Source: Candidatus Saccharimonadota bacterium (GTDB lineage Bacteria > Bacteroidota > Bacteroidia > Cytophagales > Amoebophilaceae). Taken from it: 32,000 nucleotides of DNA. A program made the position numbers and the translations under genes. The stretch covers positions 240,001 through 272,000 of the forward strand of contig NZ_OZ034918.1 of the NCBI RefSeq assembly GCF_964030745.1, in the 5' to 3' direction. Shown here piece after piece: positions 27,348-27,986 of this stretch (its first letter is position 1; each line of letters opens with the position of its first letter). Under the pieces are notes generated by a model. That model was given only the letters and a program-made list of their open reading frames with translations. It was not told where the DNA came from and searched no databases.

Positions 27348-27650
27348 AGTATAAACGCTTCATCATGCTGCAATTCATCACAAACAGTAAGCAATATTAT
27401 TTAATACAATAGCCTAAGCATTTATAATTATTAACTTCATTTGTGTAATGTATTCAAAATATCCGCCTACCCACTCACCTACTACTTACAAAAAAGTAAA
27501 TCTATTTCCAAATATATATACTTAAAACTACTGGGAGGTGTGAAGTTTCAACAGAAACGCTACAAAAAGTGATTTATAAAAATATAAAATTATAGCAGAT
27601 TATGTAGGATTGTGGGTAAGTTGTTAAACTTATCCATAATCCTATATAAT

Positions 27651-27899
27651 GTATCTGTTCAACACTATGGCCATAGTAATACAATGCCCCTGTAAAAAGT
27701 TTCGAAATAGAAGCCACCCCTTGCAGATGATTAGGAAAAACAGATTCCTTTGAAGCCCGCGCAGCGGGCGACTTCTGTTTTTCCATCTGTAAGGGGTGGG
27801 TTCCGGAACTTTTTGCCGAGGGCTTGATTTTTTGGCCACTTTTTTATCAAGGAAAAAGTGGAATAAAATTCCTTATTAACCAGTGACGTGAATAGATAC
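27651..27899 (-). mobile_element. MITE-like element copy E (249-bp single-module short form)
   Basis: The reverse complement of 27899<- is gtatctattcacgtcactggttaataa..., the family left end. The other terminus, gtatctgttcaacac at 27651->, is its inverted repeat. An 8-bp TSD TATATAAT lies at 27643..27650 and 27900..27907. The body matches module L of copies A, B and D, including the GCCCGC-TGC-GCGGGC hairpin. Confidence 0.88.
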
Positions 27900-27986
27900 T
27901 ATATAATAGCATTATGGATAATAAAACTCGTAAGATTAAATGAAAAAGAAAAATATCTCACTTCTGTTCAAGTATCACCCATTCAT

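Follow-up and report, generated by a model that had tools for sequence, protein, structure and literature searches.

What are the short repeats with shared inverted termini that lie at several places in a 32,000-nucleotide stretch (the window) of contig NZ_OZ034918.1, and what moves them? The stretch belongs to strain icPhiSpin1, a Cardinium endosymbiont of the beetle Philonthus spinipes whose closed genome comes from the Darwin Tree of Life (PMC12342168). We confirm that the repeats are a genuine family of small, gene-less transposable elements of the miniature inverted-repeat type (MITEs) in Cardinium, of which the window contains four intact, non-coding copies (A, B, D and E) with GTATCYATTCAC… termini and a perfect 8-bp target-site duplication (TSD) at each, together with a degenerate composite (copy C) and two fragments. 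The family probably owes its movement to a transposase supplied in trans, of the ISBst12-like type within the IS66 family of insertion sequences (ISs). A preliminary description of the window had proposed a MITE-like family, and this is supported by the short non-coding form, the terminal inverted repeats (TIRs), the TSDs, the nesting of copies, their near-identity and polymorphism between strains. As a kind of element the family is conventional; its novelty lies in the family itself, the IS66-type affiliation and the dimeric form.

The basic unit is a module of ~250 bp with TIRs of ~20 bp, of the form GTATCYATTCA……TGG, at its limits. The two size classes recognised earlier, 249 and 511 bp, are real, and both contain merely short overlapping open reading frames (ORFs) without family matches. 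The sequence GTATCYATTCACG has six exact matches in the 32 kb and eight at two or fewer mismatches, where chance would give 0.82 and eight is reached in 0 of 100 shuffles; the same repeat families are recovered by a repeat finder in the window. The ends of the 511-bp form, GTATCTATTCACGTCACTGG and GTATCCATTCACGCCTCTGG, agree at 17 of 20 positions, and those of the 249-bp form at 14 of 20. Copies are present on both strands, and also within one another.

Copy E (27651..27899, minus strand) is a 249-bp monomer with a strong end GTATCTATTCACGTCACTGG and a weak end GTATCTGTTCAACACTATGG (minus-strand readings), flanked by perfect 8-bp repeats of TATATAAT (27643..27650 and 27900..27907). Copy A (1095..1605, plus strand) is a 511-bp dimer with GTATCTATTCACGTCACTGG and GTATCCATTCACGCCTCTGG as its outer termini, composed of module 1 (1095-1344) and an inverted, diverged module 2 (1345-1605, 261 bp), and has the TSD CTTTTTTC at 1087-1094 and 1606-1613. 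Its insertion has split copy B, a plus-strand 249-bp monomer, into a left (1046..1094) and a right part (1614..1813), flanked by the TSD TGATAAAG at 1038-1045 and 1814-1821; the two parts join without a gap to give 249 bp that are 95.2% identical to E. Copy B is itself inserted in copy C, an older, internally deleted and degenerate composite on the plus strand, so that 1004-2102 is a three-deep nest of A in B and B in C. The left part of C (1004..1045) is colinear with the canonical element through the B insertion point, and the right part (1822..2102) consists of a degenerate module-1 end (…CTGCCACAGTGCTGAACGGACAC, to 1863), a linker and a module 2 that is ~84% identical to that of A and has a decayed right terminus; no recognisable TSD is present at copy C. 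Copy D (20786..21006 and 22576..22864, plus strand) is a dimer of the 511-bp type into which an IS has inserted, with the TSD TTTATAAA at 20778-20785 and 22865-22872. Without the IS and one copy of the IS TSD it is 510 bp long and aligns to A with no gap at the junction and with eight differences (seven substitutions and one indel), in exact agreement with the earlier count of about eight. The remaining two segments are a degenerate module-2 fragment (2664..2806, plus strand), in which the central hairpin tip is deleted and the terminus decayed, and a degenerate module-1 left end, GTATCTGTTCAGGCAATGGTGATGGCTTAAGGAATTTTA…, in the opposite orientation (2857..2906, minus strand).

The preliminary description had quoted three of these TSDs (TATATAAT, CTTTTTTC and TTTATAAA), and all three lie where it placed them. 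A script, together with reading of the sequence, gives a perfect 8-bp TSD at each of five insertions in the window (four MITE copies and the IS), and the probability of an 8/8 match at any one fixed pair of positions is ~2×10^-5 at the base composition of the window. With other Cardinium genomes and plasmids included, the total is seven MITE copies (four in the window and three elsewhere) and two IS66 copies. Two of the earlier boundaries need revision: the copy said to begin at 1046 does belong to the family but constitutes just the left 49 bp of the 249-bp copy B, the remainder lying at 1614-1813 beyond A, and the copy placed at 2671..2808 is a family fragment at 2664-2806, without an intact terminus or TSD. 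The IS nested in D, the three-deep nest and the inverted arrangement of the dimer had been missed.

Several observations support recent MITE activity. Excision of A restores a 249-bp copy 95% identical to E, and excision of the IS restores a copy with eight differences from A; this restoration of host elements upon removal of nested inserts supports mobility. A comparison for empty sites in a related genome, suggested at the outset, identified two sites that are empty in the window and occupied in the other strain. A Logan unitig (L002, from SRR15069915) is 99.67% identical to window positions 23069-26981 and has family termini at both ends: at 23069..23070 the terminus …CCACAGTGGTGAATAGATAC adjoins GAATGATT, and at 26981..26982 GTATCTATTCACGCCTCTGG… follows ATTGTAGA. 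At both sites the window has uninterrupted unique sequence, giving two presence/absence differences in 4 kb between near-identical strains. These differences and the 98.4% identity of A and D uphold the earlier suggestion of recent mobility. It could be argued instead that the copies are dead relics, amplified long ago and none of them mobilised now, with the polymorphism arising by deletion or recombination between copies; the degenerate copies in the window (C, 2664-2806 and 2857-2906) are of the kind such a history would leave, and the strain comparison does not polarise gain versus loss. We regard this as very unlikely in view of the close identity of A to D and of E to B (98.4% and 95%), the two site differences within 4 kb, the apparently intact 481-aa transposase gene of the nested IS, and the occurrence in another sample of the entire IS at 99.9% identity.

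Some of the insertions are in small hairpins. In the reconstructed target of copy E (27611-27650 joined to 27908-27947) the insertion site is the AT-rich loop of a hairpin with a perfect 11-bp stem (TTATCCATAAT/ATTATGGATAA), ~60-100 nt downstream of the rpoC stop codon, and A and B each interrupt one and the same small hairpin (CCACTTTTTTCTTGATAAAAAAGTGG) in the copy that hosts them. Hairpin targeting does not hold as a rule, since E and A lie in hairpins but D, the IS and the two polymorphic sites do not. Exact-protein look-ups of the genes flanking A/B/C, D and E, made as an empty-site test, found none on record. The rpoC homologue route for site E yielded one close relative only, a contig from another Cardinium lineage (L011, ENA ERZ1030207; rpoC 87% nucleotide identity), in which a divergent module-1-like sequence (TTGATAAAAAAGT…AAAAAGTT…GGAAAACAGAAG…GTTTTTCC) directly follows the rpoC stop codon (1725-1848); it is at a different position, and this locus was rejected as a filled/empty comparison for site E.

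Two further observations concern the surroundings of the nest. An AsnC/Lrp-type regulator gene (544-1002, minus strand) has its ATG 1 nt from the left end of copy C, and the 1.1 kb upstream of it is nested MITE sequence throughout, so either MITE DNA contains its promoter or the gene is silent. Between the MITE remnants a 67-aa ORF (2154-2357, minus strand) has a weak histone H1-like HctA match (E = 1e-3, far below cut-off).

The abundance of the family in the host genome can be gauged from spurious ORFs. With one such ORF in module 1 (MEKQKSPAARASKESVFPNHLQG…) as query, a search of ~15 billion proteins returned 18 clusters comprising 30 distinct 'hypothetical proteins', all from this genome and with no match from any other; an exact look-up of one MITE-ORF cluster representative found none on record. 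Twelve of the 30 share a prefix to …YGHSVEQI and then diverge fully, the first divergent residue always being H, L, Q, P or R, which are encoded by CNN codons. The terminal C of …GAACAGATAC is therefore kept while the flanks differ, which points to a minimum of 12 additional insertion sites where copies end at exactly this terminus. In all, the annotation of the 1.09-Mb genome includes no fewer than 30 distinct 'hypothetical proteins' of 49-155 aa (P0241-P0258) that are artefacts, being read-through ORFs with their starts inside MITE copies; P0243 spans two successive MITE ends.

Relatives of the family, found by BLAST followed by retrieval of the loci, are present in Cardinium from two mite hosts. 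Plasmid pA of Cardinium DF carries a 262-bp copy (72-74% identity) with a perfect 8-bp TSD CAAACTGA, and plasmid pB a 153-bp copy with perfect 26-bp TIRs and a perfect 8-bp TSD AATTCTGC; the PLSDB gene table has no feature annotated at either plasmid copy. The Cardinium from Tyrophagus putrescentiae has a 258-bp copy (80% identity) with a perfect 8-bp TSD TAAATGTT, and at the same locus a 96%-identical fragment of 75 nt adjoins a truncated IS66 transposase gene. The family is thus common to at least three Cardinium lineages and abundant in icPhiSpin1. A scan of GTDB species representatives with the exact 20-mer terminus gave four hits, all of them chance matches in coding sequence of unrelated metagenome-assembled genomes; an exact 20-mer is too strict, the copy in the Tyrophagus Cardinium differing at one position. 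Scans of JGI metagenomes with a 24-mer of the terminus and a 26-mer of the module-2 core returned nothing in a collection that evidently lacks short contigs, because a JGI contig (L007) holds the 26-mer and the scan was nevertheless empty.

The element interrupting copy D is a single-ORF, ISBst12-like IS of the IS66 family (21007..22567, plus strand; 1,561 bp) with termini GTAACGATTCAGCGGTGTGG and GTATCCTTTCAGGGGTGTGG and a perfect 8-bp TSD, CATTTTTC, at 20999-21006 and 22568-22575. It has space for one ORF only, and lacks tnpA and tnpB; the apparently intact gene (21099..22544, plus strand) encodes a 481-aa transposase with matches to Pfam DDE_Tnp_IS66 (2e-31) and zf-IS66 and to NCBIfam NF033517 transpos_IS66 (280 bits, cut-off 180). 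The protein is 100% identical to an 'IS66 family transposase [Cardinium endosymbiont of Philonthus spinipes]' and 54% identical to an ISWen3-family transposase. The earlier statement that no copy encodes a credible protein is thus correct for the MITE sequence itself, but not for the span of copy D (20786-22864), which includes this gene. In SRR15069915 the IS is also represented by a stand-alone contig of 1,562 bp (L001), 99.9% identical and cut precisely at the IS ends, which fits a multi-copy repeat. The window contains no second transposase, and the rest of it consists of housekeeping genes (ddl, ftsH, sodA, dnaE, prfB, rpoC and others).

The MITEs and this IS have several features in common. 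Both generate TSDs of exactly 8 bp, and both end in GT(A/G)(A/T)C..TTCA……TGG, the ends of the window IS being GTAACGATTCAG… and GTATCCTTTCAG…; all ten matches to a looser motif, GTRTNNNTTCANNNNNNTGG, in the 32 kb are element ends. The resemblance is closer in related Cardinium IS66 copies, where the outer 11-13 nt are identical to MITE termini. These include the copy on the JGI contig L007 (86% nucleotide identity), with ends GTATCTATTCAGCGG and with GTATCTATTCAGCGGTGTTG at both ends, the terminus GTATCCATTCAGCGG on contigs L008 and L009, and the terminus GTATCTATTCACCGCAGTGG on Cardinium DF plasmid pB (at 55037); another IS66 copy on pB has an 8-bp TSD, AAAAGAGT. Outside Cardinium, ISDge4 of Deinococcus, a member of the ISBst12 group for which transposition has been demonstrated experimentally, has TIRs GTGACTACTCAGCA and GTAACTGCTCAGCA and an 8-bp direct repeat (PMC12898284), and the pattern GTRWC…TCAG is common to its ends and those of the MITEs.

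We infer the identity of the mobilising transposase and the chemistry of movement as follows. Full-length ISs, with the IS at 21007-22567 as a likely source, would supply in trans an IS66-family DDE transposase of the single-ORF, ISBst12-like type. The enzyme would recognise the MITE termini and insert the element at a staggered 8-bp cut, leaving an 8-bp TSD at targets that are mostly AT-rich.

Several points weigh against this proposal. The termini of the MITEs and the window IS agree at ~13 of 20 positions, with positions 12-17 differing beyond the outer ~12 nt and the TGG, so the window IS may not be the mobiliser. No internal similarity between MITE and IS is found beyond the ~22 terminal nt, and the MITE is therefore not a simple deletion derivative of the IS; the sharing of ends only is usual for many MITEs, and lowers the case for derivation by deletion, not that for mobilisation. 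Mobilisation in trans is itself read from sequence, the strain polymorphism is taken from the 30-nt ends of one short-read unitig, and the copy count and TSD tally for the host genome are indirect, coming via the spurious ORFs. A transposase of some other family, generating 8-9-bp TSDs, could in principle move the MITEs and the IS66 resemblance be coincidental. Cardinium genomes contain many IS families (PMC9769881), with IS256, ISL3 and IS1634/IS4-like elements as candidates known in the genus; the match to the resident IS is the ~13 of 20 positions given above, and the inspection for transposases covers the 32-kb window alone. Nonetheless this seems distinctly unlikely, given the identity of the outermost 11-13 nt in several Cardinium IS66 copies, the shared 8-bp TSD length, the recurrence of GTRWC…TCAG in ISDge4, and the IS66 type being the sole transposase in the window.

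Mobilisation by an IS66-type transposase thus remains our preferred explanation, and the two kinds of element are also physically associated. In three independent samples an IS lies within or beside MITE sequence: inside the module-1 part of D, adjoining module 2 on L007 (1569-1615), and adjoining the module-1 hairpin on the Logan contig L008 (1-30). This may reflect a target preference, or plain tolerance of insertions there. At the 3' ends of L008 and L009 (SRR25685068/9) the repeat unit ends in a MITE-type terminus, GTATCTATTCACCCTTGTGGCAGAAAAC, 30 bp outside the decayed right end of the IS. This unit may be an IS that adopted a MITE end, forming a hybrid element; unitig boundaries are the sole basis for this and we do not rely on it. 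A similar arrangement is seen on plasmid pB (L013, CP101108.1, ~1210-1232), where a decayed family-type end, CAGCCACAGTCGTGAACGGAAAC, is located ~25 bp outside the left end of a DF IS66 copy.

The 511-bp form had been described as the 249-bp module plus a second module of 261 bp; the size is right, and the second module is a paralogue of the first that has diverged and is inverted relative to it. Global alignment of module 2 gives z = 10 to 14.6 against inverted module 1 and ~0 in direct orientation, and the 511-bp form is therefore a tail-to-tail dimer of two diverged paralogous modules with decayed inner ends. It would have originated through the tail-to-tail juxtaposition of two such modules and decay of the inner ends, the pair then moving as a single unit through its two better-matched outer termini.

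Nearly all of each module folds back into a single long, imperfect hairpin whose tip is G+C-rich. The folding energy under DNA parameters is -51.5 kcal/mol for E (z = -7.4) and -131.6 kcal/mol for A (z = -14); the hairpin of the DF copy is weaker (z = -3.0). Among the 82 pairs of an alignment of five sequences, 11 have changed on both sides with pairing kept, against 4.9 ± 1.5 in column shuffles (0 of 500 reach 11) and 1-3 with slid-partner controls, and in a six-sequence alignment there are 14 such pairs of 89; ~4 independent lineages are represented in these alignments. Compensatory changes that keep the stem across Cardinium lineages are suggestive, not proof, and could reflect selection on the folded DNA or RNA or arm-to-arm correction within a palindrome.

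Such stable hairpins (with the 11 compensatory pairs of 82, and with copy E just downstream of rpoC) might be expected of genes for structured RNAs, or of REP/BIME-like or terminator-like regulatory hairpins, that spread by recombination or through a RAYT-type enzyme. This interpretation is largely refuted by the precise TIRs and the perfect 8-bp TSDs at seven MITE and two IS66 copies, REP/RAYT elements being without TSDs; the copies are also found in both orientations and nested in each other. The Rfam search recommended in the preliminary description gave nothing at gathering thresholds, and at E ≤ 1 merely weak microRNA-precursor and small-RNA matches far below gathering scores. We therefore consider an origin as RNA genes or regulatory hairpins scarcely credible, and the elements to be MITEs with hairpin structure. 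A bolder and rather doubtful proposition is that no MITE family had been linked to IS66/ISBst12 before this one, and that the hairpin of the whole element is under selection, either as a folded single strand in the transposition substrate, bringing the ends together, or for a role at the RNA level. If it were true, such a role could be transcript termination or stabilisation beside housekeeping genes such as rpoC and prfB, and the tail-to-tail dimer would illustrate how a better-matched TIR pair evolves from two weak-ended monomers.

The MITEs described from Cardinium in the literature that we found are MITECca01 and MITECca02 alone, which are ~240 bp long, derive from the IS982-family element ISCca4 and were described as restricted to cOegib, a symbiont of a spider (PMC9769881). 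The elements described here resemble them in the host genus, in being non-coding, TIR-bounded and multi-copy, in their frequent location in other mobile elements, and in a proposed dependence on intact copies of a resident IS. Whereas MITECca01 and MITECca02 are IS982-derived and were found by BLAST in no other Cardinium strain, the present family has IS66-type termini, 8-bp TSDs, a distribution across at least three lineages and a 511-bp dimer. This separation is made by the published descriptions; by eye, the AGMTTGTW motif conserved beside the left inverted repeat of MITECca01 and MITECca02 is absent beside the left terminus of A and E. Members of the ISBst12 group of IS66 (ISBst12, ISDge4 and the ISWen3/ISWpi5-like elements of Wolbachia) have the same GT(A/G)(A/T)C…TCAG termini and 8-bp TSDs, but the MITEs lack a transposase, have an unrelated interior and differ at terminus positions 12-17.

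Rickettsia palindromic elements (RPEs) are short palindromic repeats that have likewise proliferated in an obligate intracellular genome and are often annotated as ORFs or inside them. RPEs are not known to have recognisable TIR/TSD signatures or an identified transposase partner, and the elements here, unlike them, have such signatures and a probable partner. Classical bacterial MITEs (Correia, RUP, MITEPsy1) share the small size, TIRs, TSDs, hairpin potential and mobilisation in trans, but have other parent IS families and shorter TSDs (2-4 bp). IS630 is among the parent families of classical MITEs other than MITEPsy1, and there are others. For MITEPsy1, transposition has been shown and IS5 proposed as the parent (PMC3189936). 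No MITE family attributed to IS66 was encountered in the literature found, a search that did not extend to ISfinder or the specialist IS66 literature, and IS66 is absent from the main text of a 2024 review of prokaryotic MITEs and of a 2024 survey of 183,232 genomes. Within the same bounds (ISfinder and specialist IS66 literature being outside the comparison), the family provisionally appears undescribed.

The family has consequences for how Cardinium genomes are read. Recently active, it drives variation among strains of a reproductive-parasite endosymbiont, and its insertion polymorphisms provide markers for typing very close Cardinium strains. Short-read assemblies break at MITE copies, the related copies on genomes and plasmids of other Cardinium are unannotated, and flagging the spurious ORFs is useful for Cardinium annotation. 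The family also ties MITEs to the poorly understood single-ORF (ISBst12) branch of IS66 and offers a compact natural substrate for questions of transposase recognition, in that its ends are defined, its TSD is 8 bp and it exists as monomer and dimer.

Two other genes in the window merit mention. The prfB gene (release factor 2; minus strand) has a canonical programmed +1 frameshift site, CTTTGAC, at ~24105, and the listed ORF (23085-23831) is its C-terminal part only. A 266-aa ORF at 9640-10440 encodes a repeat protein of unknown function with no Pfam or NCBIfam match, and contains two tandem units of 66 bp (9828-9959, 88% identical) followed by four or five units of 84 bp (9966-10385, 67-77% identical).

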